This document shows, piece after piece, positions 6,208 through 19,470 of a DNA stretch of 32,000 nt. The position numbers and the translations under genes were made by a program. The stretch is from an uncultured Actinomycetes bacterium (GTDB taxonomy: Bacteria > Actinomycetota > Actinomycetes > S36-B12 > CAIYMF01), in the NCBI GenBank assembly GCA_963843975.1, contig CAWJMG010000003.1, positions 1,680,001-1,712,000 of the forward strand, given 5' to 3'. The notes beneath the pieces were generated by a model, which saw only the letters and a list, made by a program, of their open reading frames with translations, did no database searches and was not told the origin of the DNA. Position 1 is the first letter of the stretch; the number at the start of each line of letters is the position of its first letter.

Positions 6208-8514
6208 GTGCTGGCACCGGTCTCGGAATCCGGGTGCCTCAGGCTCGGTCGCCGTAGCGTGACCCCATGCTCCGTCGCGCCTGCTCCGCTGCCGTCGCCC
6301 TCGCGCTCCTCGCCGCCTCGCTGGTCACCGGGTTGGCGGCCGCGCCCGCCGCCCAGGCGGCCGTGGCGTCCGACCCGGTGCAGCTACCAGGTCACGTTCG
6401 TCGCGCGCGTCTGCCCGACGTACGCCGACATCATGGCCAACCGCGCGCGCAACAACATCCAGGAGAGCCTGCGCGACCTCGGCAAGGACACCGTCTACAC
6501 CAGCGGCAGCCCGGTGCGGCCGTCGATCGAGGAGCCGAACAACCCCAACTGCAAGCCCCTCGACGACTGGCAGTTCCGCCTCGGCACCGGCTACGCCGGG
6601 AAGACGCCGGCGAACGACTACCTCTCGACGGTCACGGGCGACTACGGCCAGACGATCAAGGTCCAGCCGACGACGCCCGAGCTCGACTCCCTCGGCCAGG
6701 ACACCGGGCGCACGGTCGAGGACGCGGTCACCGTCACGCTCACGGCCGAGCAGGCGCAGCGGGCGCAGCAGGGCAACCGCCTCTGGACCCAGGGCGGCCT
6801 GCGCACCGACCCGCTGATGAACACCGTCTTTGGCGACGCGTACGGCTTCGGCGCTCTGCGCTGCGCGATCGACAACCTCAACGGCGACAACGTCGAATGG
6901 ATCGGCTTCCCGCAGGGCAGCCGGCACGTCTTCTGCTACTACTACGCCGTCACGCCTCCGCCGGACGCCGGCACGATCGTGGTGCGCAAGCAGCTCGCGA
7001 CCGGCAGCAACGGCCCCGCGACCTTCCGGTACGTCGGCAACATCTCGTACACGCCGACCAACGACTTCTTCCTGTCGCCGCAGGACGACACGACCCCGGT
7101 CTCGGCCTCGTTCGTGCGCGCGGTGGGCGACGCCTGGGACTTCGAGGAGCAGCCGCTCGACGGCTACGCGCTCGCGAGCCTCACGTGCGCGGAGACGACA
7201 GGCTCAGGCTCGACATGGACCATTGCCGGGGCCAAGGCCACCGTGCGCGTCGGCGACGGCGCCACCGTCACGTGCACGTACACGAACGCCGAGGTCGCCG
7301 CGACGACGGGCTTCCTGCAGCTGTCGAAGGTGTCGTACGGCGGCGTCGGCTCGTTCGACTACCTGATCACCCGCGGCGACAGCACGACGCTGGCGGCGTC
7401 CGCCACGACGACAACCGAGGGCGAGCCGGTGGTCGTCGCCGACACCTCGGCCGCGGCGGTCGGCACCTGGACGGTGCGCGAGACGCTGCCGGCACCGACC
7501 ACGCGCGGCGCGTGGTCGGTCGAGGCCGTCCAGTGCAACGGAGCGGACGTGCCGTTCACCGACGCGCCCGGGCCCGCGGGCACGACGTACGTGAGCGCGT
7601 CGAAGAACATCCAGGCCGGCGAGGCCACCGACTGCCTGTTCACCAACCGGTTCACTCCGGGTGGCGAGCTGCAGCTGGCGAAGCGCACCACGGGCGGCAC
7701 CGGGTCGTTCGCGTTCCCGGTGGTGCGCGCGGACCAGGTGGACGAGGACGGCACCGTCACCGACCTCTTCAGCATCTACGGCGTCGACGTCGCCGCCACC
7801 GGCACGCCGACGACCGCGACCGCGGTCTCGGGCTTCGCGACCCTGACCGACCTGCCGGTCGGCGAGGCCGAGGCGTCGACCTACCTCGTCGGCGAGCTCG
7901 CGCCGCCGGACTCGCCCACCGCGAGCTGGCGCTTCCGCTCGATCGCCTGCACCGACCTCGACACCGGCGACCCGGTGCCCGTCACGGGTGCGCTCGGCGG
8001 CAACGCGCTCCGGGTCGAGCTGACCGACGAGCACCCGCGGGTGCGCTGCCTCGCTGACAACGCGCTGCAGCCGGTCGGCGGCCTCGACGTGTCCAAGACC
8101 ATCGCCGGTGCGAGCGCCGGGGCACAGGGTGCGGTGACGATCGCGATCACGTGCGACGACGGCACCCGCGCCTCGCTCGACGTGCCCGCGGGCGCCGCCG
8201 GCACGACGTCGCTGGCCGACACCCTCGCGCTGCGCGACCCGGCGACCTGCACGGTCGTCGAGACCGAGAACGGCGCCCGCGCCGAGGCGAGCAAGGTGGC
8301 CACGACCTTCTCGGTGAACGGCGGCACCGCCGTGACCGGCACGCGGGCCTCGGTCGACGTCGACAGCGGCGCGCTCTCGAGCGTGGACGTGGTCAACACG
8401 TACGACGCCCTGGCCCCCAGCGGCGCCTCGCCCGCGACGCCGGCGTACGCGCTGGCCGGACTGCTCCTGCTGCTGCTCGGCGCCGCCGCCTACGCGGTCG
8501 GCTCGAGGGCCTGA
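6208..8514 (+). CDS. secreted/cell-surface repeat-domain protein (prealbumin/SpaA-like beta-sandwich repeats); apparent frameshift near the 5' end
   Basis: There are four tandem modules of ~110 aa, each carrying a spaced Cys pair (…VTCTYTNAE, …TDCLFTNRF, …VRCLADNAL, …ATCTVVETENG). The C-terminus has a hydrophobic anchor (AYALAGLLLLLLGAAAYAVGSRA). A textbook signal peptide, MLRRACSAAVALALLAASLVTGLAAAPAAQA, begins at 6267 but in the neighbouring frame. 6267..8514 is 3n+1 long. The true start is uncertain. Confidence 0.7.
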   Translation: MLAPVSESGCLRLGRRSVTPCSVAPAPLPSPSRSSPPRWSPGWRPRPPPRRPWRPTRCSYQVTFVARVCPTYADIMANRARNNIQESLRDLGKDTVYTSGSPVRPSIEEPNNPNCKPLDDWQFRLGTGYAGKTPANDYLSTVTGDYGQTIKVQPTTPELDSLGQDTGRTVEDAVTVTLTAEQAQRAQQGNRLWTQGGLRTDPLMNTVFGDAYGFGALRCAIDNLNGDNVEWIGFPQGSRHVFCYYYAVTPPPDAGTIVVRKQLATGSNGPATFRYVGNISYTPTNDFFLSPQDDTTPVSASFVRAVGDAWDFEEQPLDGYALASLTCAETTGSGSTWTIAGAKATVRVGDGATVTCTYTNAEVAATTGFLQLSKVSYGGVGSFDYLITRGDSTTLAASATTTTEGEPVVVADTSAAAVGTWTVRETLPAPTTRGAWSVEAVQCNGADVPFTDAPGPAGTTYVSASKNIQAGEATDCLFTNRFTPGGELQLAKRTTGGTGSFAFPVVRADQVDEDGTVTDLFSIYGVDVAATGTPTTATAVSGFATLTDLPVGEAEASTYLVGELAPPDSPTASWRFRSIACTDLDTGDPVPVTGALGGNALRVELTDEHPRVRCLADNALQPVGGLDVSKTIAGASAGAQGAVTIAITCDDGTRASLDVPAGAAGTTSLADTLALRDPATCTVVETENGARAEASKVATTFSVNGGTAVTGTRASVDVDSGALSSVDVVNTYDALAPSGASPATPAYALAGLLLLLLGAAAYAVGSRA

Positions 8515-8542
8515 GCCCGCCGGGGCACCGGCCCGGGAACGA

Positions 8543-8578
8543 CTGAGCCCCCCTCGCCCGAAGGCGAGGGGGGCTCAG
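8543..8578. terminator. bidirectional stem-loop between convergent genes
   Basis: ctgagcccccctcgcc (8543-8558), loop cgaa, ggcgaggggggctcag (8563-8578). This is a perfect 16-bp stem between the surface-protein stop (8514) and the cspA stop (8594). Confidence 0.7.
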
Positions 8579-8593
8579 TGCGAAGCGTGGTCG

Positions 8594-8797
8594 TCAGACC
8601 GCGCGGACGTTCTCGGCCTGCGGGCCCTTCTGGCCCTGACCGATCTCGAACTCCACGCGCTGGTTCTCCTCGAGGGAGCGGTAGCCGCTGCCCACGATCG
8701 CCGAGAAGTGAACGAACACGTCGGTGTCCGAGCCGTCCGGCGAGATGAAGCCGAAGCCCTTCTCCGCGTTGAACCACTTGACAGTGCCCTGCGCCAT
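8594..8797 (-). CDS. cspA: cold-shock protein (CspA family)
   Basis: [22 protein letters not shown]…VFVHFSAI carries the RNP1/RNP2 motifs. ATG at 8797 is preceded by GAGGAGA. Confidence 0.95.
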
Positions 8798-9171
8798 TAC
8801 ATGTCTCCTCATGGGGACGGTTCAGGCCGCACCTTGTGCGCGGACCCGGGTTGCTTCCGCCGTTGTGTCAGACCTGCCCATGGGGACGTGTCTTGCGAGG
8901 CACCGATTCCGGCGAGCCGGAGGGTTCCCAGGACGAACGAAGTGCTGCAACCACGCTCAGCATACCCAGATCCCCGCGCACGACACCATGCTTCAACCCG
9001 CCTGGAGCACGTGTCGACACGCTCCCGTGATCCGAGCCGGGCGCGGGGGCGGGCATGGTCGTGCTGGGCCTGGGCGCGCCTGCGGGGGTGGTCGCATCGT
9101 GCTCCGTGTCCGACTATCGGTCACCACGCCGCCCGAGACGGCCTCGCCCCCCTCCCGGTACCGTCGCGACC

Positions 9172-9498
9172 ATGACCGAGTCCCCCGACAACCTCCCGCG
9201 CCGGCACCAGATCGAGGTGCCCGCCGACCTGGTCGTAGGGGTGCCCGCCGACTTCGCCTCGGTCTGGCACACGCCCGAGTCGTTCGTCATCGACTTCCTG
9301 TCCGCCCGCGGTCCGGCGCAGATCATGGACGACGAGGGCACCCCCGTGCTGAGCCAGGACCTCGTGGTGAGCGCACGGGTGCGCATGCCCCCCACGCACG
9401 TCATCGAGCTGATGAAGGCCCTCGAGCGCCAGCTCTCCACCTGGGAGACCCAGACGGGGCAGCGCTCGCCGGTCGACCCGCCGCACCCCGACCTCTGA
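9172..9498 (+). CDS. DUF3467 domain protein
   Basis: MTESPDNLPRRHQIEVPADLVVGVPADFASVWHTPESFVIDFL…VIELMKALERQL matches my recollection of the DUF3467 family pattern. ATG at 9172. The upstream part of ORF 9055..9498 is Pro/Arg-rich filler. Confidence 0.8.
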   Translation: MTESPDNLPRRHQIEVPADLVVGVPADFASVWHTPESFVIDFLSARGPAQIMDDEGTPVLSQDLVVSARVRMPPTHVIELMKALERQLSTWETQTGQRSPVDPPHPDL

Positions 9499-9641
9499 GC
9501 GGCTGGGTCCCGGCTGCGGGCGTGTCGCACGAGCCCCGATGTCCTGAGCGACACGACAGGGCGGCTTGAGGGTCGCGAGAGCCTCGCGGCGCATGCTCAT
9601 CCCACAACTTCATGCGTGCGGCTCCACTCGGCAGACGATCA

Positions 9642-9731
9642 CCCCCCCCCCCCGGTCCTCTGCCATCCCCCCCCCCCACTGGTGGAGCCACCCAGCACGC
9701 GACACGGATCGAGTACCCCCCCACTCGATCC
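9642..9731. repeat. three poly-C homopolymer tracts (C12, C11, C7); the last forms the loop of a 9-bp hairpin
   Basis: Counted directly: C12 at 9642-9653, C11 at 9667-9677, C7 at 9716-9722. Hairpin: ggatcgagt (9706-9714) pairs with actcgatcc (9723-9731). Confidence 0.9.
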
Positions 9732-9872
9732 GCACTGACGGCCCCGCCTCCACCCGAGACGGGGCTGTCAGCATTCCGGGACCTGTCCGCGGCACTGTCG
9801 GTAACCGAACTCTTCCTGACTCGCCGGTCAGTACGCCGTCTGCGCGGGCCGCCGCCCGCGTACGCTCCCGCC

Positions 9873-12329
9873 ATGGCGGATCCCGTTCTCCCCTCCCGTG
9901 CCCGCGTCGTCGTGATCGGCGGCGGCGTCATCGGCTCGTCCGTGGCGTACCACCTCGCCGAGCTCGGCTGGACCGACACGCTGCTGCTCGAGCGCGACCG
10001 GCTCACCAGCGGCACCACGTGGCACGCGGCCGGGCTCATGGTGACCTTCGGCTCGACCTCGGAGACCTCGACCGAGTTCCGGAAGTACACCCGTGACCTC
10101 TACTCCCGGCTCGAGGCCGAGACCGGGCAGTCGACCGGTTTCTCGCCCGTCGGCTTCATCGAGATCGCGACCGACGCAGGCCGCCTCGAGGAGTACCGCC
10201 GCGTGTCGGCGTTCAACCGCTACTGCGGCGTCGATGTCCAGGAGATCTCGGCCCGCGAGGTCGAGCAGAAGTTCCCCATCGCACGGGTCGACGACGTGCT
10301 GGCCGGCTTCTACGTCGCCGAGGACGGCCGCGCGAACCCTGTCGACGTGACGATGGCGCTCGCGAAGGGTGCGCGCCTGAAGGGCGCGACCGTCCTCGAG
10401 GGCGTGCAGGTCACCGCCGTCACGACGAAGGACGGCGCGGTCACGGGCGTCGACACGCCGTACGGGCACGTGGAGTGCGACGTCGTCGTGAACTGCGCGG
10501 GCATGTGGGCGCGGCAGCTCGCCGAGCAGAACGGCGTCAACGTGCCGCTGCAGGCCGCCGAGCACTACTACCTGATCACCGAGGAGTTCGACGCGATCAG
10601 CAAGTCGTTCCCGGTGCTGGAGGACCCGGCCAACTTCGGCTACTTCCGCGAGGAGGGCGGCGGCCTCATGGTCGGCCTCTTCGAGGCGGTGTGCGCGCCC
10701 TGGAAGATCGAGGGCATCCCCGACTCGGCGTCGTTCCTCGAGCTGCCGCCGGACTGGGACCGCATGGGCCCGTACCTCGAGGCCGCGATGAGCCGCATCC
10801 CGATGTCGAACGAGGTCGGGATCCGGAAGTTCTTCTGCGGGCCGGAGAGCTTCACGCCCGACCTGCAGCCGGTGGTCGGCGAGGCGCCCGAGGTGCGCGG
10901 CTACTTCGTGGCGGCCGGCCTCAACTCGATCGGCATCCTGACCGGCGGCGGCATGGGCCGCGCGGTGGCCGAGTGGGTCGTCACGGGCCACCCGACGGTC
11001 GACGTGACCGGCTTCAACATCGACCGGCTGCACACCTACCAGCGCAACCCGGAGTACCGCGCGACGCGCACGGTCGAGAGCCTCGGCCGCGTCTACGCGA
11101 CGCACTACCCCGACAAGCAGATGCACACCGCGCGCGGTGCGAAGCTGTCGCCGCTGCACGAACGTCTGGCGGCGCAGCGGGCGTGGTTCCGCGACGTCAG
11201 CGGCTGGGAGAACCCGGGCTGGTACGCGCCCGAGGGTGCCGAGCCCGACTTCGGCGAGCCGACCTTCGGCCGCCCCTCGTGGTGGCCGCACTGGGAGGCC
11301 GAGCACCACGCCGCCCGCAACGACGTCATCGTCATGGACATGAGCTTCATGTCGAAGTTCCTCGTCCAGGGCGACGACGCCGGCGCGCGGCTCAACTGGA
11401 TCTCCGGCAACGACGTCGACGGCGAGAGCGGCGTCATCACGTACACCCAGTGGCTCGACGAGCTCGGCAAGCTGCAGGCCGACCTCACCGTCACCAAGCT
11501 GGCCGACGACCGCTTCTGGGTCGTGGCCTCGGACACAGCGCACCGGCACGTCGAGACGCACCTGAAGCGGCACTTCGCCGGGCACCACGCGTTCGTCACG
11601 GACGTCACGGGTGCCTACGCCCAGATCAACGTGCAGGGTCCGCGCTCGCGCGAGCTGCTGCAGTCGGTCACGACGGTCGACCTGTCGGACGAGGCGTTCC
11701 CGTTCCGTGCCGCGCGCGAGATCGACCTCGGCTTCGCGCGCGTGCTCTGCATCCGGATCACCTACCTCGGCGAGCTCGGCTACGAGCTCTACGTGCCGAC
11801 CGAGCAGGCGGTGCACGTCTACGACCGGCTGGTGTCGGCCGGGCCGGCGTACGGGCTGCGGCACGCGGGCACGAAGGCGCTCGCGAGCCTGCGCATGGAG
11901 AAGGGCTACCGCGACTACGGGCACGACATCGACAACACCGACACCGTGCTCGAGGCCGGTCTCGGCTTCGCCGTCGCGATGGACAAGCCGGGGGGCTTCC
12001 TCGGCCGCGAGGCCGTCGCCGCCCAGAAGGCCGCGGGCCCGTTGAGGAAGCGGCTGGTGCAGGTGCTGGTCGACGACCCCGAGCCGATGATGTTCCACGC
12101 CGAGGTGATCAGGCGCGACTGCGTGCCCGTCGGCTACATCCGCGCGGCGTCGTACGGCTTCACACTGGGCGGCGCGGTCGGGCTCGCGATGATCGAGGCC
12201 GACGAGCCCATCGATGCTGCGTGGATATCGGCCGGGTCGTGGACGGTGGAGATCGTCGACCGCGAGTGGCCGTGCACGGTGTCGCTGCGCCCGCTGTTCG
12301 ACCCCGCCAACGAGAAGATCAAGCGCTGA
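9873..12329 (+). CDS. FAD-dependent oxidoreductase fused to a GcvT-type folate-binding aminomethyltransferase domain (dimethylglycine oxidase / sarcosine dehydrogenase family)
   Basis: ATG at 9873 (MADPVLPSRARVVVIGGGVIGSSVAYHLA, Rossmann GxGxxG). The C-terminal half is GcvT-like (…ITYLGELGYELYVP…). The upstream part of ORF 9612..12329 is non-coding leader. Confidence 0.9.
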   Translation: MADPVLPSRARVVVIGGGVIGSSVAYHLAELGWTDTLLLERDRLTSGTTWHAAGLMVTFGSTSETSTEFRKYTRDLYSRLEAETGQSTGFSPVGFIEIATDAGRLEEYRRVSAFNRYCGVDVQEISAREVEQKFPIARVDDVLAGFYVAEDGRANPVDVTMALAKGARLKGATVLEGVQVTAVTTKDGAVTGVDTPYGHVECDVVVNCAGMWARQLAEQNGVNVPLQAAEHYYLITEEFDAISKSFPVLEDPANFGYFREEGGGLMVGLFEAVCAPWKIEGIPDSASFLELPPDWDRMGPYLEAAMSRIPMSNEVGIRKFFCGPESFTPDLQPVVGEAPEVRGYFVAAGLNSIGILTGGGMGRAVAEWVVTGHPTVDVTGFNIDRLHTYQRNPEYRATRTVESLGRVYATHYPDKQMHTARGAKLSPLHERLAAQRAWFRDVSGWENPGWYAPEGAEPDFGEPTFGRPSWWPHWEAEHHAARNDVIVMDMSFMSKFLVQGDDAGARLNWISGNDVDGESGVITYTQWLDELGKLQADLTVTKLADDRFWVVASDTAHRHVETHLKRHFAGHHAFVTDVTGAYAQINVQGPRSRELLQSVTTVDLSDEAFPFRAAREIDLGFARVLCIRITYLGELGYELYVPTEQAVHVYDRLVSAGPAYGLRHAGTKALASLRMEKGYRDYGHDIDNTDTVLEAGLGFAVAMDKPGGFLGREAVAAQKAAGPLRKRLVQVLVDDPEPMMFHAEVIRRDCVPVGYIRAASYGFTLGGAVGLAMIEADEPIDAAWISAGSWTVEIVDREWPCTVSLRPLFDPANEKIKR

Positions 12330-12348
12330 CCGCCGTACGGTGGCCGGC

Positions 12349-13347
12349 GTGACCGAGCGCGAGATCACCGGGCCCGTCGACCTCTGCACGCCCAAGGGCC
12401 GCGTGAACCGCGACGCCGTGGGGTGGACGCGGCAGCCGCTTCACCGCACCTCGGTGCCGGGCTGGGGCCGCACGAAGCGCTGGGAGTACTGGGGCGTCAT
12501 GACGCCGACGGTGTTCGTCGGGCTCACGGTGTCCTCGCTCGACTATGCCGGCGTCGAAGCGGTGTACGTGCTCGACCGGGCGACGGGCCGCGAGCACGTG
12601 CACGAGGCGGTCGTGCCGCTCGCCCGCGGCGTGGTGCTCCCCGAGCAGTGCGGCGCCGGCCGAGCCGCGGCGTCTGCGAAGGACCTGCGCATCGAGCTCG
12701 TCGAGGTCGACGGCGGCACGCACCTGGTCGCCTCCGGGCAGGGCATCGAGGTCGACGTCGTCGCGGTGCTGCCCGAAGGGCACGAGCGCATGGGCGTGGT
12801 GGTGCCCTGGTCGGACACGCGGTTCCAGTACACGGTCAAGGACGTGGGGCGGCCGGTGTCGGGCTCCGTGGTCGTCGACGGCGTGCGCCACGACGTGGGT
12901 GGTGCCGGGTCGTTCGGGGTGCTCGACCACGGGCGCGGGCGCTGGCCTTACTCGCTCACCTGGAACTGGGGCGCGGGGCACGGCGCGGTCGACGGCCGCG
13001 CGGTCGGGGTGCAGGTCGGCGGGCTCTGGACCGACGGAACGGGCTCGACCGAGAACGCGCTCGTGCTCGACGGCGTGGTGCACAAGGAGTCGGGCACGCT
13101 GCGGTGGGAGTACGACCGCGCCGACTGGCTGCGCCCGTGGCGGATCCGGACCGTCGGCTCCGAGCGGGTCGACCTGGCCTTCACGCCCGCTCATGAGCGC
13201 GTGGCGCGTACCAACCTGCTCGTCGTCGCCAACGAGACGCATCAGTGCTTCGGCACCTGGTCGGGCTGGATGAGCACCGACGACGGCGAGCGCGTGCGGG
13301 TCGACGGCGCGGAGGGCTGGGCCGAGGAGGCCCGCAACCGCTGGTGA
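12349..13347 (+). CDS. DUF2804 domain protein
   Basis: VTEREITGPVDLCTPKGRVNRDAVGWTRQPLHRT…RWEYWGV… matches my recollection of DUF2804. The start is GTG 12349 or GTG 12340, 11-20 nt after the upstream stop. Confidence 0.7.
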   Translation: MTEREITGPVDLCTPKGRVNRDAVGWTRQPLHRTSVPGWGRTKRWEYWGVMTPTVFVGLTVSSLDYAGVEAVYVLDRATGREHVHEAVVPLARGVVLPEQCGAGRAAASAKDLRIELVEVDGGTHLVASGQGIEVDVVAVLPEGHERMGVVVPWSDTRFQYTVKDVGRPVSGSVVVDGVRHDVGGAGSFGVLDHGRGRWPYSLTWNWGAGHGAVDGRAVGVQVGGLWTDGTGSTENALVLDGVVHKESGTLRWEYDRADWLRPWRIRTVGSERVDLAFTPAHERVARTNLLVVANETHQCFGTWSGWMSTDDGERVRVDGAEGWAEEARNRW

Positions 13348-13445
13348 GGCAAGCCTCACCTGATGCCATGTGCTGCAAGGGGAATCACTCCGCAGTTTGC
13401 TCCGTGAGCCTCCCGTGAGCGATCAGCCACGCCTACCCTGAACTC

Positions 13446-14999
13446 ATGGACATGTCCGAGGTACGCACGCGCGCCCGCACGCTCGTCGACAGCCCTGAGC
13501 TGACGTACCGGCAGCGGGTCCAGGCGCTCGCCGGCCTGGCCGAGGCGACCCTCGACCCGCCGGCGGTGTCCGACGCGGTGACGGAGGCCCTCGCCACCGG
13601 GCTCGTGTGCGACATCGCGGAGGGGCATGCGCCTTACCGGCCGCGCTACCTGCTCCCCGACTACCCGAAGGCACTGCGCCAGGGCTCGGAGTTCCTCGGG
13701 CTGAAGCCGCCGACCGATCTCTACGAGGCCGTGGCATTCCTGCTCTCGATGTACTCCCAGGTGCCGTCCATCACCGGCTATCCCGTCTACCTCGGCGACG
13801 TCGACTCGCTGCTCGAGCCGTACGCCGACGGCGTCGACGACGAGACGCTCACGAAGATCCTGCGGCTCATGTGGGTCACGATCGACCGGTCGCTGCCGGA
13901 CGCGTTCACCCACGCGAACCTCGGACCGGACGACTCGCGCGTCGGCCGCACCATCCTCGCGCTCGAGCGCGAGCTGCTGCAGACCGTCCCCAACCTCACG
14001 CTCAAGGTGGACGCCGAGCGCACGCCCGACAGCCTCGTGCTCGACGCGGTGAAGACCGTGTTCGCGTGCGGCAAGCCGCACTTCGTCAACCACGCGATGA
14101 TGACGGCCGACCTCGGAGCGGACTACGGCGTCGTCTCCTGCTACAACTCGCTGCGCGTCGGCGGTGGCTCGCACACGCTCGTGCGGCTCAACCTCGCGGA
14201 GTCCGCTCGCCGCAGCGTCGGCGGTGTCGACGAGTACCTCGCCACCACGCTCCCCGCGCACGTCGAGGTGACGGCCGAGCTCATGGCGGCGCGCATCACG
14301 TCGCTGGTGGAGCAGGCGCACTTCTTCGACAACAGCTGGCTCGCCGACGAGGGCCTCGTGCACCTCGACCGGATGTCGGCGATGTTCGGCGTCTACGGCC
14401 TCGCCGAGTGCGTAGACGGCCTCGTCGCGGCCTCCGGCGGCACCGGCCGCTACGGGCACGACGCAGACGCGACGTCGCTCGGCTGGCGGATCGTCGAGCG
14501 CGTGGCCGAGCTGGTCGCGGCGACACCGCTCCCCTACTGCGAGGGCAACGGCGGCCACGCCTTCCTTCACTCGCAGTCCGGCATCGACTCCGACCTCGGC
14601 GTCACTGCCGGCACGCGCATCCCGATCGGCGACGAGCCGCCGCTGTTCGAGCACCTCGCCGCCGTCACGCCGAACCACAAGTGGTTCGCGTCCGGAGTCA
14701 GCGACATCCTCAGCTTCGACCAGACGGCCGTGCGCAACCCGCAGGCCTGCGTCGACGTCGTACGCGGAGCCCTGGCCACGGGGATGCGCGACGTCACATT
14801 CAACCTCGACAGCAACGACTTCATCCGGATCACCGGCTACCTCGTGCGCAAGAGCGATCTCGCGAAGCTCGATGCGACCGGCGTCGCGCGGCACGGCAGC
14901 GACGTGCTGGCTGCGGGCTCGGTGGCCAACTCGCACTCGGACAAGCGCGCCGTGAAGCGGGTGATCAGCCATGAGTCAGCCCCTCGGGCTGCTGGCTGA
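13446..14999 (+). CDS. YjjI-family glycyl-radical enzyme (function unknown)
   Basis: 517 aa. The C-terminal motif FIRITGYLVR (Gly codon at 14835-14837) resembles the glycyl-radical fingerprint R-[VI]-x-G-[YF]. Overall length and the pairing with a YjjW-like activase fit the YjjI family. Confidence 0.8.
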   Translation: MDMSEVRTRARTLVDSPELTYRQRVQALAGLAEATLDPPAVSDAVTEALATGLVCDIAEGHAPYRPRYLLPDYPKALRQGSEFLGLKPPTDLYEAVAFLLSMYSQVPSITGYPVYLGDVDSLLEPYADGVDDETLTKILRLMWVTIDRSLPDAFTHANLGPDDSRVGRTILALERELLQTVPNLTLKVDAERTPDSLVLDAVKTVFACGKPHFVNHAMMTADLGADYGVVSCYNSLRVGGGSHTLVRLNLAESARRSVGGVDEYLATTLPAHVEVTAELMAARITSLVEQAHFFDNSWLADEGLVHLDRMSAMFGVYGLAECVDGLVAASGGTGRYGHDADATSLGWRIVERVAELVAATPLPYCEGNGGHAFLHSQSGIDSDLGVTAGTRIPIGDEPPLFEHLAAVTPNHKWFASGVSDILSFDQTAVRNPQACVDVVRGALATGMRDVTFNLDSNDFIRITGYLVRKSDLAKLDATGVARHGSDVLAAGSVANSHSDKRAVKRVISHESAPRAAG

Positions 15000-15699
15000 C
15001 GTCGTCCCGTTCTCCTGGGTCGACGGGCCGGGCAACCGCTTCGCCGTCTTCCTCCAGGGGTGCAACCTCGACTGCCTGGTGTGCCACAACCCGCACACGA
15101 TGCCGCTGTCGACGCCGCGCGCGCGGTCGGTGTCAGTTGCCGAGCTCGTCGACCAGGTGCGTCCGCTGGCGCCGTACCTCTCGGGCGTTACGGTGTCCGG
15201 CGGCGAGGCGACCCTGCAAGCGCCGTTCGTGGCCGCGTGGTTCGACGCCCTGCACGACGACCCGGCGACGTCCGGGCTCACGCGTTTCGTCGACAGCAAC
15301 GGCTGCGCCGACGACGACGTGTGGGACCTGCTGCTGCCGCGCACCGAGGGCGTGATGCTCGACCTCAAGGCCCTCGACCTCGGCACCCACCTCGAGCTCA
15401 CCGGTTCGTCGAACTTCTCGGTGCTGCGCGGCCTCGAGCGGCTCGCGATCGCGGGCAAGCTGGCCGAGGTGCGGCTGCTCGTCGTGCCCGACCGCAACGA
15501 CTCCGAAGAGACGCTGCGGGCCACCGGCGAGTTCGTCGCGAAGCGGGCGCCCGGGGTTCCCGTGCGGGTGATCGGCTTCCGGGCGCACGGCGTACGAGCC
15601 GCGGCACGGTCGATCCGCGAGGCCAGCGCCGAGGAGCGCGCCCACTACGGCGAGTGGGTCGCCGAGGCCGTCGGCGCCGACCTCGTCACCGTCGTCTGA
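14971..15699 (+). CDS. YjjW-family glycyl-radical enzyme activase (radical SAM)
   Basis: SWVDGPGNRFAVFLQGCNLDCLVCHNP contains the activase-type CxxxCxxC cluster motif. The start overlaps the preceding gene by 29 nt. Confidence 0.85.
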   Translation: MSQPLGLLADVVPFSWVDGPGNRFAVFLQGCNLDCLVCHNPHTMPLSTPRARSVSVAELVDQVRPLAPYLSGVTVSGGEATLQAPFVAAWFDALHDDPATSGLTRFVDSNGCADDDVWDLLLPRTEGVMLDLKALDLGTHLELTGSSNFSVLRGLERLAIAGKLAEVRLLVVPDRNDSEETLRATGEFVAKRAPGVPVRVIGFRAHGVRAAARSIREASAEERAHYGEWVAEAVGADLVTVV

Positions 15700-15770
15700 C
15701 CCTGGCTGCTGCCGCGACCAGCGGGCACGACCGCAAGACAGACCGACAAAGAACCGGCACTATCGCTCGC

Positions 15771-16277
15771 ATGGACTTCGGGGGAGCCAACCTTCCGACG
15801 CCTCAGGACGATCCACGTGGGTACGCCCTTGCGGTAGCGAAGTGGCGCCGCGGCATGTGGCGCGGCGTCATCGGGATATTGGCCTTGCTTGCGTTGGGGC
15901 TATGGGTCTCTGGCTACTTCCAGCAGCGCAAGCACCCTGAGACCTTCCCCGCCCTTGCCGCCGCTGTCGGCTTGGGGCTCCTGATCGCGTTCGGTGCCGG
16001 ATACGTGGCGGGCCGCGTTGTTCGACGGCACGTCAAGCCCGCTGCGCCTGGCTATTCACTTCGCGGCAGCGGCGCGAGCAGCAAGCCTCCGGGCTGGGTC
16101 TATGTCGTGCCGTTGATTGGTGCGCTGGTGCCTGTCGGGATGCAGTCGTTGGCAAGGGCATCGCCACAGGCTGCGGACGTGTTGGCGGCTGTCGCTGCGG
16201 GAATCCTGACGGTCCTCGCGGGAGTCATGGCCGCCCAACTGCCATGGCCCCCCGACCCAAACGATCCGAAGCCGTAG
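15771..16277 (+). CDS. hypothetical membrane protein (about 4 TM segments)
   Basis: ATG at 15771. There are four hydrophobic stretches (e.g. GVIGILALLALGLWVSGYF). Codon usage is atypical for the window, with many A/T-ending codons. I recognise no family. Confidence 0.5.
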   Translation: MDFGGANLPTPQDDPRGYALAVAKWRRGMWRGVIGILALLALGLWVSGYFQQRKHPETFPALAAAVGLGLLIAFGAGYVAGRVVRRHVKPAAPGYSLRGSGASSKPPGWVYVVPLIGALVPVGMQSLARASPQAADVLAAVAAGILTVLAGVMAAQLPWPPDPNDPKP

Positions 16278-16429
16278 ACGCCTAACGTCGCAGGCGCCTC
16301 GCGGTACCGCGCCCAGATGTGCCGTTCGCGCTCGCATCTGATCGGGGGGACGGGCATCCTGATTGACACGGTGACGACGGGGAACGGGCGCTCCATGGAC
16401 TGGAACTGCTCTCTGAGGGGCTGCGTCTG

Positions 16430-16891
16430 ATGAGAATGACTATTCGGGGTAGCGCGGCGGCTGCTGTCCTCGTCCTCCCGGGTCTCCTCCTCGCGGGGTG
16501 CGGTTCGACTCAGCCGACAGCAGCGATTGCAAGTGCGTCCGTTAGCACCTACGGAGACCTGTCCAACGATCAGTACGACGCGGCGGTTGCGCTGGCTCGC
16601 CAAGAGGTCGCTCGCGACGGCGCCACGATCACCAGTGCCACGGCGACGCTGACGTCCGGCACGGTTGAAGACACGAACCTTCCGGGCACGTGCACGTCTG
16701 GAAAGCTGCTGAACATCAAGCTGATCGGAACCGACTTCGCGATTTCTGTTGGTGGCACGCCGGGCGGCGACACGACGGTGAGTGGAGTCCTGCTGACCGC
16801 CGATGCCGACAGCGGCGAGGCCTGCATGCTCGCCGTCAAGACCGGTGCCGTCTCACCCGACCCTGGCGCGGTGACGCTCAGCCTCGGCTGA
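16430..16891 (+). CDS. hypothetical lipoprotein
   Basis: MRMTIRGSAAAAVLVLPGLLLAGCGS is a signal peptide with the lipobox L-A-G-C. Codon usage is atypical (aga, act, att, ggt, gca, agt). Confidence 0.6.
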   Translation: MRMTIRGSAAAAVLVLPGLLLAGCGSTQPTAAIASASVSTYGDLSNDQYDAAVALARQEVARDGATITSATATLTSGTVEDTNLPGTCTSGKLLNIKLIGTDFAISVGGTPGGDTTVSGVLLTADADSGEACMLAVKTGAVSPDPGAVTLSLG

Positions 16892-17137
16892 GCAGAAGTG
16901 CCGATCCAGCTCGGCTCGTGCGCGTGTGCTGGGCGCTCGTCGGCGTGGCAGCAGAGTCGGGCAGTCGGTCCCCTTCCGCACTCCCCAGCCGGTTGTCACC
17001 GTCGGCGACTGCGCGCACGGCACCCTGTGGACGACTCGCTGTAGGTGTCGGCCTGTGGACAGCGCCGCCCGACATCCGTTGTGGTTGTTGCGCTTTGGGG
17101 GTTGACGACTGTCGGAGGGCCGTGATTTGATTCGTAC

Positions 17138-18518
17138 ATGCGTTCGACTCCTGCTGACCTCCCGCTGGAGCAGAAGGCTGCCCGCGCAGTCTCCGCCCTG
17201 ATGGAGGCCGCCGAGGCGGTGGCCGAGGTCGCCCGCGAGGGTGGGTTCGCCGCCGCACCCGCCGTGGTGCAGCCGGCGCTGGCGATGGCGGTGCTGCGCT
17301 CCGCCGACCAGGCCCAGGCCGCCGCCACCGTCGCGGTCGGTGTCGTGCACGCGTCGGGATGGCTGCCCGACGGGCAGGTCTCCCTCGGTCGGTGGCTCGA
17401 GAAGGTCGGCGGGCTCGCGAGTCGTGAGGCCGCCGGCCTGATCGGCGCCGCCCGCAGCCTCGCCGACGACTACGACCGGCTCCGGGACGTCTGGCTCACC
17501 GGTGAGATCTCCGGATCGATGGCCACCACGATGCGCACCGGCATCGACACCATGCTGCGCCGCGTCCCCCGCGCCGACCGCCCCGCCGAACACGCCCAGA
17601 TCCTCGACCAGCTCATGCCCCACGCCGACCGCGTCACCCCCGACCGGATGGCCAAGGTGCTCAAGGACCTGCGCACCCGGGTCGACCAGGACGGCGCCCG
17701 CCAGGCCGAGATCGACGCCGACGACGAGCAGCACATCACGTTCACCCCCGTCGGATCCGGCGTCGTGATGAAGGGGTGGCTCTCCAACGAGACCTACGCC
17801 CAGATCCGCACCGCGCTCGAGCAGGTCGTCGACGGCTGGTACCGCGATGGCGAGCTCCCCGAGGAGGACCGCATCGACTCCGCCGACGACTTTCGCGCTG
17901 CCGACCGCACGAAGCGCCAGCGTCAGGCCCACCTGCACGCGTTGGCACTTGCCCAGCTGTGCACCGACGCCCTCGAGTCCGGCAGCCTCGGCACCCACCA
18001 CGGGCTCCTCCCCCGCATCACCCTGACCGGCAGCCTCGACCGGCTCGACGTCGGACTCGGGGGCGAAGCTGCTGCTGCCCGGGCACGACACCCCCGCCGT
18101 CGTCATCCCCGACGCGTTCCGCCGGTTCCTGTGCGACGCCGAGATCACCCCCATCATCACCGCCAACCCCACCCACGGCCTCCAGCCGATCGACCTGGTG
18201 CTGCGCGAGGCCAACGACGCATTCCTGTACGTCGGCCGCGACTACCGGGTCGTGCCTCCCCGCCTGCGCCGGGCCATGGAGCACCGCGACGGGCACTGCG
18301 CCTTCCCCGGCTGCGGCGTGAACGTCCGCCGCTGCCGCGCCCACCACGTCCAGCACTGGGAGCACGGCGGATTGACCAATCTCGACAACTGCGTGCTCCT
18401 GTGCGAAACCCACCACAGATCAGTGCACGAAGGCGGCTGGACCGTCCGTGCCGTAGGCGCCGATCCACGCCTGCCGGACTACTGGCAGTTCACCCCGCCC
18501 GACCGACGCCGGCCCTGA
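17138..18518 (+). pseudogene. DUF222 / HNH endonuclease (13E12-repeat-type), frameshifted as assembled
   Basis: The N-terminal DUF222-like part is in the frame of ORF 17138..18526 up to …RLDVGLGG. The continuation GAKLLLPGHDTPAVVIPDAFRRFLCDAEITPII… and the HNH core (HCAFPGC…AHHVQHWEHGG…LLCETHH) are in the frame of ORF 18198..18518. The switch is at the G5 run 18059-18063. The total length is 3n+1. Confidence 0.8.
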
Positions 18519-18609
18519 CCGCATAGCGCGTCAGGGCGCACGACCCGTCACCCGTCACCCCGTTCACCCGTGCCGACCGCTGGTACGCGCGACGATTACG
18601 CTCTCGACC

Positions 18610-19470
18610 ATGCTGATCGTCGATGCGCGCGAGGCGCACACCTGGTTCGGATTCGGCGTCGCCGGCAACTTCGCCGGCCACCTCGAGCAGGCGGGCGAGG
18701 CGGGCGACTTCGTGTCGGTCACGGCCCCCGAGAACGCGCCGAAGGGGATCTTCCCCTTTTACGTGCCGGGCAAGGACTCCTACCTCGGCACGTTCCCCAT
18801 CTCGTCCGACACCGTCCAGCTGCCGCAGTCGGACACCCCGCTCAACCTGCAGATCGAGCCCGAGGCCGGCTTGCTCTGCCACGTCCACTACGGCGCCGAC
18901 GGCGGCATCGAGCGGCTCGCGCCCTACGCGATCGGGGCGTTCAACGACTGCTCGATCCGGCGGCCCGACGCCAAGAAGCTCAGCGAGAAGAAGAACTGGG
19001 GGCCCGCGTCCAAGGGCCTGGCCGCGCGCCTGCTCACGGTCGACGACCTCGGCCCAGCGGGCGGCACCGCCGACCTGCGCATCGCGAGCTTCCTGCGCCG
19101 CGGCGGCGAGGCGCACGCGTACGGCCTCGACTCCCCCGTCGTCGGCTACTCGTACTACGGCGACGTCCTGCTCGACTGGATCGTCGAGCGCCTGCACAAC
19201 CAGACGGGCTCGCCCGAGACACCGTTGGAGAACGTCGGCCAGTACCTCCTCGATGCCGGCCGCCCCGCCACGGTCGTGATCGGCATCGGCGCCACGCGCT
19301 ACACCGAGGTCGGCGAGAGCACCTACCTCGAGGACGGCGACCAGGCGATCGTGATCGTGTACGACGCCTCCGCGACCGCGCCCGAGCAGGTCGCGGCCGC
19401 GGTCGCAGCCGGCACCGAGGACGACCTCGAGCACGCGTCGGTGCTGCGCCAGACCGTCCGCACCGCCTGA
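18610..19470 (+). CDS. conserved hypothetical protein, FAH-like sequence pattern (possibly DUF5718)
   Basis: 286-aa ORF with typical codon bias. GVAGNFAGHLEQAG … PKGIFPFYVPG … LQIEPEAGLL resembles the spacing of fumarylacetoacetate-hydrolase-fold motifs. The family name is from memory only. Confidence 0.6.
   Translation: MLIVDAREAHTWFGFGVAGNFAGHLEQAGEAGDFVSVTAPENAPKGIFPFYVPGKDSYLGTFPISSDTVQLPQSDTPLNLQIEPEAGLLCHVHYGADGGIERLAPYAIGAFNDCSIRRPDAKKLSEKKNWGPASKGLAARLLTVDDLGPAGGTADLRIASFLRRGGEAHAYGLDSPVVGYSYYGDVLLDWIVERLHNQTGSPETPLENVGQYLLDAGRPATVVIGIGATRYTEVGESTYLEDGDQAIVIVYDASATAPEQVAAAVAAGTEDDLEHASVLRQTVRTA

Follow-up and report, generated by a model that had tools for sequence, protein, structure and literature searches.

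The yjjI-yjjW pair and its reading frames

The window analysed here is a 32,000-nt stretch of contig CAWJMG010000003.1 from an uncultured Actinomycetes bacterium, and our subject is a pair of plus-strand genes within it: yjjI (13446-14999), which encodes a 517-aa protein matched by the glycyl-radical enzyme (GRE) models TIGR04040 and PF11230, and a yjjW-like gene (14971-15699), which encodes a short, PflA-type radical S-adenosylmethionine (SAM) activase of 242 aa matched by Radical_SAM, Fer4_12 and TIGR04041. Upstream on the same strand lie a fusion of DAO, FAO_M, GCV_T and GCV_T_C domains that by Pfam resembles dimethylglycine dehydrogenase (DMGDH) or dimethylglycine oxidase (DMGO; 9873-12329) and a DUF2804 gene (12349-13347; PF10974, 354 bits over the whole profile). 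An earlier reading of this DNA from its sequence, hereafter the original prediction, had taken the linkage of the four genes as the sign of an undescribed anaerobic pathway. We consider it highly likely that 13446-15699 is instead an autonomous two-gene glycyl-radical module whose place behind a DAO/GcvT…DUF2804 backbone, to which it is unrelated, is a historical accident.

We searched the window with a listing of open reading frames (ORFs) together with Pfam and NCBIfam scans, and the arrangement described in the original prediction was reproduced exactly: four plus-strand genes in succession, a 19-nt gap between DAO-GcvT and DUF2804 (12330-12348), a 98-nt gap between DUF2804 and yjjI (13348-13445), and a 29-nt overlap between the 3' end of yjjI and the start of yjjW (14971-14999, plus strand). 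Third-position GC content of 0.91-0.94 in all four frames argues that these are real coding frames, and the ratios of nonsynonymous to synonymous substitution (dN/dS) of the four genes against close relatives range from 0.06 to 0.29. For yjjI and yjjW the corresponding ratios of 0.10-0.29 show, at the level of sequence, that both genes are under purifying selection and are maintained in the window lineage. The yjjI/yjjW overlap is identical in E. coli K-12 and recurs in 49 of 78 related loci, which argues for an ancient translational coupling between the enzyme and its activase.

Family membership and predicted structure of the enzyme and its activase

The assignment of the 517-aa protein to the YjjI family was borne out by both family profiles: TIGR04040 scored 664.8 bits against a cut-off of 498.3, with positions 3-497 of the 497 in the model matched, and PF11230 scored 638.9 bits over positions 1-484 of 485. 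The protein aligns with E. coli YjjI over its full length (512 aa) at 45 % identity and is 95-96 % identical to its counterparts in Longivirga aurantiaca, a genus placed by NCBI taxonomy in the Sporichthyaceae, and in a Nanopelagicales metagenome-assembled genome (MAG). In the E. coli system (b4380/b4379) YjjI is colinear with the window protein and shares the RxTGYxVR motif and the cysteines of VSCYNS and CxKPH, with the activase gene immediately downstream as in the window. The family clusters at 50 % identity into 478 groups at E <= 1e-3 and 104 at E <= 1e-30 among 1.84 billion representatives, so by sequence it is compact and isolated. To our knowledge, YjjI is among the few orphan GREs left in E. 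coli. Taken together, the profile and alignment evidence identifies the window protein as a genuine YjjI-family GRE and an ordinary member of a known orphan family.

The catalytic residues expected of a GRE can be placed on the translation. The FIRITGYLVR motif is encoded at 14820-14849 and, although it had been described as ending the protein, it is present about 50 residues before the C-terminus and not at the very end. Within it, IRITG464YLVR aligns with VRVTG465YMVR of E. coli YjjI, which makes Gly464 (codon at 14835-14837, plus strand) the predicted glycyl-radical site, as the original prediction had proposed. A 2026 preprint reports that a radical probe labels the equivalent G465 in living E. 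coli, and since that study still calls the protein uncharacterised, the statement that the YjjI/YjjW pair has no assigned substrate stands. The proposed thiyl cysteine in VVSCYNS likewise withstood scrutiny: Cys232 (codon TGC, 14139-14141, plus strand) is invariant in 50 homologues, is kept in E. coli YjjI and falls at a predicted hairpin tip. A second universally conserved cysteine, Cys208 in FACGKPH (codon at 14067-14069, plus strand), is also invariant in the 50 homologues and kept in E. coli; a third, Cys365, is invariant only locally and is not conserved in E. coli YjjI.

We then turned to the predicted structure. An AlphaFold (AF2) model of YjjI built from the 50 homologues reached a mean predicted local confidence (pLDDT) of 87 and a predicted template-modelling score (pTM) of 0.89. 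It places Gly464 at the tip of one hairpin (E459-462/E465-468) and Cys232 at the tip of another (E227-231/E234-237), making Cys232 the likely thiyl cysteine. When the model was compared with the Protein Data Bank (PDB) using Foldseek, 121 chains matched at E <= 0.001 and the top 50 were all class III ribonucleotide reductases (RNRs) or other GREs, in keeping with the ten-stranded alpha/beta barrel of the GRE superfamily; no solved YjjI structure was found by this search. The closest fold is that of the class III RNR NrdD (8p2s, 9dau, T4 1h78), with template-modelling (TM) scores of 0.65-0.74, followed by PflD, YbiW and other GREs. The top match, 8p2s_B, gave E = 3.7e-16 and a TM score (TMq) of 0.74, with T4 NrdD at 0.68, and all of the structural matches are at 12-14 % identity. 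A search of the YjjI profile against all PDB chains retrieved no GRE, only chance matches to ribosomal protein L29, and the window protein has no Gly_radical, PFL-like, NRDD or ATP-cone Pfam match at E values up to 10.

Comparison with NrdD and pyruvate formate-lyase (PflB) shows where YjjI is alike and where it departs. NrdD and YjjI share a C-terminal glycine hairpin and a cysteine finger loop, and each has a small radical-SAM activase without a ferredoxin domain; unlike NrdD, which runs to 600-712 aa, the 517-aa YjjI has no ATP-cone, no zinc-ribbon cysteines or CxxC pair, and no significant profile match. The original prediction had suggested alignment to pyruvate formate-lyase, and the similarity seen is local. 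The glycine motifs are similar (RVSGYAVR in PflB, RITGYLVR in YjjI), as are the contexts of the cysteine loop (DYAIACCVSP…RANLAK and DYGVVSCYNS…RLNLAE), but the loop tip of YjjI carries one cysteine (SC) where PflB has a CC pair, YjjI is 240 residues shorter, and hhalign, run with the YjjI profile against the single E. coli PflB sequence, gave a probability of only 0.9 %. That non-significant alignment sets S231-C232 on C418-C419 of PflB, a weak pointer only.

Given the resemblance to NrdD, YjjI could be a nucleotide- or nucleoside-directed reductase akin to class III RNR, serving as an auxiliary anaerobic enzyme of deoxyribonucleotide or deoxysugar metabolism. All of the best structural matches being NrdD (E to 3.7e-16, TM to 0.74) speaks for this idea, as do the two conserved cysteines on separate structural elements, as in NrdD, the weak NRDD Pfam signal of E. 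coli YjjI and, in precomputed Pfam annotations, of many homologues, and the position of E. coli yjjI divergent from deoCABD. We nevertheless judge it improbable, if worth keeping in view. Identity to NrdD is only 12-14 %, the window protein itself lacks any NRDD, ATP-cone or Gly_radical match, no CxxC pair could furnish the Cys4 zinc site found at the NrdD C-terminus, and the hhalign comparison with E. coli NrdD was not significant (4.6 %). NrdD is, moreover, already present in E. coli, and no nucleotide-metabolism gene occurs among the conserved neighbours of yjjI-yjjW.

Turning to the activase, the assignment to YjjW held in that TIGR04041 is the best-scoring NCBIfam model (214 bits, matched in two stretches, ahead of TIGR02493 (PFLA) at 124 bits) and all motifs are present, but the score lies below the curated cut-off of 250.2. 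It shares 40 % identity with E. coli YjjW and carries the CX3CX2C motif of a radical-SAM [4Fe-4S] cluster as CNLDCLVC (C31/C35/C38; 15061-15084, plus strand), which the related activases scanned also have at the corresponding place, together with DGPG at residue 18 and the SAM-binding GGE at residue 77. Closer inspection of the alignment with E. coli YjjW revealed a gap of 43 residues in the window protein, corresponding to a ferredoxin-like insert with two CxxCxxCxxxC motifs. This insert is absent from 66 of 78 partner activases, essentially those of Actinomycetota, which form a short type of about 240 aa. The 12 loci that retain it are non-actinomycete or acidimicrobial and include Deltaproteobacteria, SAR324, Verrucomicrobiales, Trueperaceae and Ilumatobacteraceae. 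Lack of the insert is why these proteins fall under the curated TIGR04041 cut-off, and the recurrence of the short form in 66 of 78 partners marks it as a clade feature and not as a sign of decay. In length and domain content, the window activase is PflA-like.

Gene neighbourhoods and transcription signals of yjjI-yjjW

To place the pair in its genomic context we assembled 80 species-level genome loci encoding YjjI relatives (59-96 % identity), which with the window make 81, and searched them with the window proteins. The activase gene directly follows yjjI in all 80, yet the linkage to the two upstream genes is absent from 76 of them. DAO-GcvT and DUF2804 flank yjjI-yjjW only in three loci (L002-L004) whose YjjI is at least 86 % identical to that of the window. 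These three are fully syntenic with it, including the succinate dehydrogenase (Sdh) and M20 peptidase genes and, where the flank reaches that far (L003), phosphoenolpyruvate carboxykinase, and therefore represent one evolutionary event. The sister clade (L005-L019, 76-84 % identity) has yjjI-yjjW in a gmk / mIHF / coaBC housekeeping region, and in the Planktophila clade the pair comes after genes for a SenX3/RegX3-type two-component system. All-against-all clustering of the ORFs in the 81 loci showed that only YjjI, YjjW and their shadow ORFs are widely shared; the next real cluster occurs in at most 12 loci, and the clusters that are shared consist of clade-specific housekeeping genes. We also took a census, by Pfam, of 77 genes bordering the pair in about 42 non-redundant loci; it yielded 112 families, each with at most three members, and counted DUF2804 zero times and DAO/GCV_T once (L048).

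The closest relative of the window (L001, 96 % YjjI identity) also bears on the linkage. It retains DAO-GcvT and lacks DUF2804, and DNA alignment of L001 9878-10000 with window 12331-13325 revealed that about 1 kb including the DUF2804 ORF has been cleanly deleted, with nearly identical flanks and with the whole yjjI upstream region and yjjI-yjjW intact. Given that yjjI-yjjW is kept where DUF2804 has been deleted, this comparison of sequences indicates that DUF2804 is dispensable for the pair. The converse arrangement also exists: in L084, L086 and L087 a backbone of cold-shock protein (CSP), DUF3467 and DAO/GcvT…DUF2804 occurs with no yjjI-yjjW following it. In the window the first part of this backbone occupies 8594-12329, with the cold-shock gene on the minus strand, and related genomes of the Nanopelagicales type have it too; gene calling in L086 splits DAO and GcvT into two genes. 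In related MAGs, DUF2804 lies 0, 2 (cydAB) or 4 genes beyond DAO/GcvT, so even the pairing of these two is loose. DUF2804 of Cellulomonas has unrelated neighbours, and in Nocardioides pacificus DUF2804 and yjjI-yjjW are about 1.1 Mb apart, the former immediately following a set of genes for 2-oxoacid dehydrogenase components (E1, transketolase-like, E2). Judged from these gene orders, the backbone is older than the insertion of yjjI-yjjW and independent of it.

The products of the two upstream genes offer no link to glycyl-radical chemistry either. A PDB sequence search with the DAO-GcvT product returned rat and human DMGDH as the best matches (E = 7e-126) and Arthrobacter (A. globiformis) DMGO at 2.5e-97, and the complete domain architecture of DMGDH/DMGO is present in the 9873-12329 product, which by sequence is a flavin- and folate-dependent enzyme of this type with aerobic-type chemistry. 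For DUF2804, a search of the PDB by sequence found no relative. Its predicted structure (pLDDT 93.8) is an AttH-like double beta-barrel, matching AttH NE1406, the decalin-forming cyclases CghA, Fsa2 and Phm7, kievitone hydratase and 25-phosphosteroid lyase at E values of 1e-8 to 1e-6 and TM scores of about 0.5. The AttH-like family members matched act on lipophilic substrates, and the modelled fold, together with the 2-oxoacid dehydrogenase context in N. pacificus, hints at a lipophilic substrate for DUF2804 as well. We found no tie between DUF2804 and radical or methylamine chemistry, and we conclude that DAO-GcvT and DUF2804 are not functional partners of the yjjI-yjjW module.

Consistent with separate control of the pair, the region upstream of yjjI holds candidate signals of its own. 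A -10-like hexamer, TACCCT (13434-13439, plus strand), lies 6 nt upstream of the yjjI ATG, and a TANNNT sequence precedes the yjjI start in 40 of the 81 loci, at a distance of 6-7 nt in all but one of them and of 8 nt in that one, against a chance expectation of 0.25 %. A Shine-Dalgarno-like sequence is found in only two of these 40 loci, and none precedes the window yjjI. The conserved hexamer at leaderless distance, combined with the missing Shine-Dalgarno sequence, points to a leaderless yjjI mRNA from its own promoter, and the recurrence of the pattern implies leaderless yjjI mRNAs across much of Actinomycetota. A hairpin, GGTGAGG-CAAG-CCTCACC (13343-13360, plus strand), spans the stop codon of DUF2804 as the sole stem of a 37-nt stretch (13336-13372) that folds at -12.1 kcal/mol (z = -1.7), and it is kept in L001 despite the DUF2804 deletion; it may be a terminator without a T-tract or an operator. 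That the yjjI upstream region came through this deletion intact suggests that the pair's own control signals reside there.

Several observations weigh against reading the pair as an independently transcribed, autonomous module. Our scan of 8500-17200 found neither a T-tract terminator nor a consensus sigma-70 promoter between DUF2804 and yjjI, although the sigma-70 consensus suits actinobacteria poorly, and read-through from upstream is accordingly possible. The leaderless promoter is inferred from conservation, and the stability of the hairpin at the DUF2804 stop barely exceeds that of shuffled sequence. As to family membership, the activase scores below its curated cut-off and the YjjI profile gave no significant hhalign match to either E. 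coli NrdD or PflB. No DosR/DevR box GGGACTWWAGTCCC occurs in the window with up to two mismatches, the best upstream score being 9/14. Finally, an unrelated actinomycete MAG (L048) has a 45 %-identical DAO-GcvT paralogue at 13146-15602, about 0.9 kb downstream of yjjW. This is the only other co-location of DAO-GcvT and yjjW that we found and, as one among about 45 independent contexts, by rough estimate it is compatible with chance.

Some of these observations would fit a lineage-specific co-expression in Longivirga and its closest relatives, in which read-through from a DAO-GcvT/DUF2804 promoter contributes to yjjI-yjjW transcription, so that the genes are co-regulated while they serve unrelated processes. 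The 98-nt gap without a canonical terminator, the shared strand and the stability of the arrangement over L002-L004 speak for such an account. It must contend with the conserved -10-like hexamer at leaderless distance, the hairpin at the DUF2804 stop codon and the survival of the yjjI upstream region in L001, and we regard it as rather unlikely.

The stronger claim, that the four genes form one operon for an undescribed anaerobic route acting on a methylated amine or amino-acid derivative, with DAO-GcvT and DUF2804 supplying or processing the substrate of YjjI, fared worse. The common strand and tight spacing (19 nt, 98 nt and the 29-nt overlap), the retention of the arrangement in L002-L004 and the DAO-GcvT paralogue near yjjW in L048 lend it some appeal. 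The neighbourhood comparison, which had been named beforehand as a test able to overturn it, went against it on each point: 76 of 80 loci are without the linkage, the census counted DUF2804 not once and DAO/GCV_T a single time, the nearest relative has lost DUF2804 with yjjI-yjjW intact and under purifying selection, and the backbone exists without yjjI-yjjW. L048 aside, neither gene ever accompanies yjjI-yjjW beyond a single shallow lineage, and where one genome has both DUF2804 and yjjI-yjjW they are 1.1 Mb apart. The promoter signature of yjjI itself, the aerobic-type flavin oxidase/dehydrogenase nature of DAO-GcvT and the AttH-like fold of DUF2804, as in enzymes acting on lipophilic substrates, add to the case, and we hold a shared pathway to be very improbable.

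Least credible of all is that yjjI-yjjW is a decaying relic with no current function in an aerobic actinobacterium, a view to which the usually aerobic standing of the lineage of L. aurantiaca, the closest named genome, the nearby succinate dehydrogenase and the sub-threshold activase score might lead, but which we reject on the dN/dS of 0.10-0.29, with both ORFs intact, all catalytic motifs present and the short activase shared by 66 of 78 partners. What remains by far the best description of 13446-15699 is the autonomous two-gene module.

The surroundings of the pair in the window include further features. Succinate dehydrogenase is encoded near the pair. Downstream, a variable island (15700-18610) separates yjjW from a DUF5718 gene, which directly follows yjjW in L002 and L003, with other inserted DNA at this place in L001. 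Within the island are ORFs for a small predicted membrane protein (about 15780-16277) and a lipoprotein-like product (16430-16891). It also contains a gene for a DUF222 and HNH endonuclease protein split over two frames (17138-18214 and 18198-18518), a split that reflects either a frameshift in a pseudogene or an error of sequencing. Scanned in full against Rfam, the window showed no riboswitch or other RNA, and a PADLOC scan found no relationship to defence systems.

Possible low-oxygen regulation, proposed mechanism and significance

Glycyl-radical chemistry in an actinobacterium raises the question of oxygen. E. coli has succinate dehydrogenase alongside several GREs. The original prediction had called the setting unusual on account of an aerobic-type Sdh, and while the Sdh is indeed encoded in the same window, the argument carries little weight given that E. 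coli yjjI is activated under anoxia. Streamlined freshwater organisms of the Ca. Planktophila/acI type are regarded as oxic-water specialists, in which a GRE is unexpected. In nine such MAGs (L065, L066, L068, L071, L072, L074, L075, L077 and L079) yjjI-yjjW lies directly after genes for a histidine kinase and an OmpR-type regulator, and our literature search found no paper linking Planktophila/acI to a GRE.

Regulatory sequences upstream of yjjI in the relatives point in the same direction as the E. coli gene, which is directly activated by FNR under anoxia (PMC3688515). An imperfect 14-mer palindrome, GGGACCTTnGGCCC, is present in about 30 loci (L019, L021-L027, L029-L032, L034-L037, L039, L041, L043-L045, L047-L049, L051, L054, L060, L061 and L070; in L021, for example, at 9952-9965), starting at -48 to -51, mostly -49 or -50, from the yjjI start and centred at about -43. 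Matches of at least 12/14 occupy 0.23 % of upstream positions against 0.0022 % of background, an enrichment of about 100-fold. The palindrome resembles the mycobacterial DosR/DevR box GGGACTWWAGTCCC, reported for M. tuberculosis as TTSGGGACTWWAGTCCCSAA (PMC2275270). Two boxes each occur in L028 and L033, and L017 has a perfect 14/14 match at -71. A search for typical DosR-regulon genes behind other DosR-like boxes in the related loci turned up nothing beyond various oxidoreductases and one SCP2 protein. The box is missing in the window clade and in the majority of L005-L018. The window yjjI is preceded, at about 60-70 nt, by a different motif, TGCAAGGGGAATCAC (13374-13388, plus strand), which is conserved only in the window and L001-L003 and was found once in the window by motif search; it may be an operator for another regulator that replaced the DosR-like box. 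Together, the DosR-like motif and the activation of E. coli yjjI by FNR make a low-oxygen switch plausible for the family as a whole, and by analogy with E. coli and with the boxed relatives, expression of the window pair is probably confined to low oxygen as well. At the level of the promoter the two systems differ, the E. coli gene being FNR-activated and the window copy having a predicted leaderless actinobacterial promoter.

These features can be assembled into a working mechanism. A promoter belonging to yjjI itself would produce a leaderless mRNA, with yjjW translationally coupled to yjjI through the 29-nt overlap. By family chemistry, YjjW, with one CX3CX2C [4Fe-4S] cluster, would cleave SAM reductively, and the resulting 5'-deoxyadenosyl radical would abstract a hydrogen from Gly464 of YjjI. 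The model has the Gly464 hairpin reaching into an NrdD-like alpha/beta barrel; if YjjI resembles solved GREs in this respect, Gly464 would there face the Cys232 finger loop. On substrate binding the radical would pass to Cys232, and the thiyl radical would then abstract a hydrogen from a small-molecule substrate. The presence of Cys208 together with the NrdD-like fold makes chemistry of the reductase or lyase type likelier than C-C cleavage of the PFL type. Extending this picture to the phylum, we tentatively suggest that Actinomycetota, including nominally aerobic soil genera and Nanopelagicales/Planktophila, may keep, under purifying selection, an NrdD-like orphan GRE with a single-cluster activase that is wired to low oxygen and performs an undescribed radical reaction of importance in hypoxia, with the promoter rewired in the window clade; we consider this broader proposal possible, though on balance doubtful.

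Collectively, these findings bear on how the function of this enzyme family might be approached. A true link to DAO-GcvT and DUF2804 would have meant a new anaerobic pathway, and the evidence against it spares the effort of following it up. The pair behaves as a strictly two-gene, translationally coupled unit, and since it has no conserved neighbours, genome context will not reveal the substrate of YjjI. In Actinomycetota the activase takes a short form without auxiliary clusters, and many actinobacterial yjjI copies carry a DosR-like box. The experimental route is thereby narrowed to direct biochemistry, or to transcriptomics under hypoxia combined with metabolomics.

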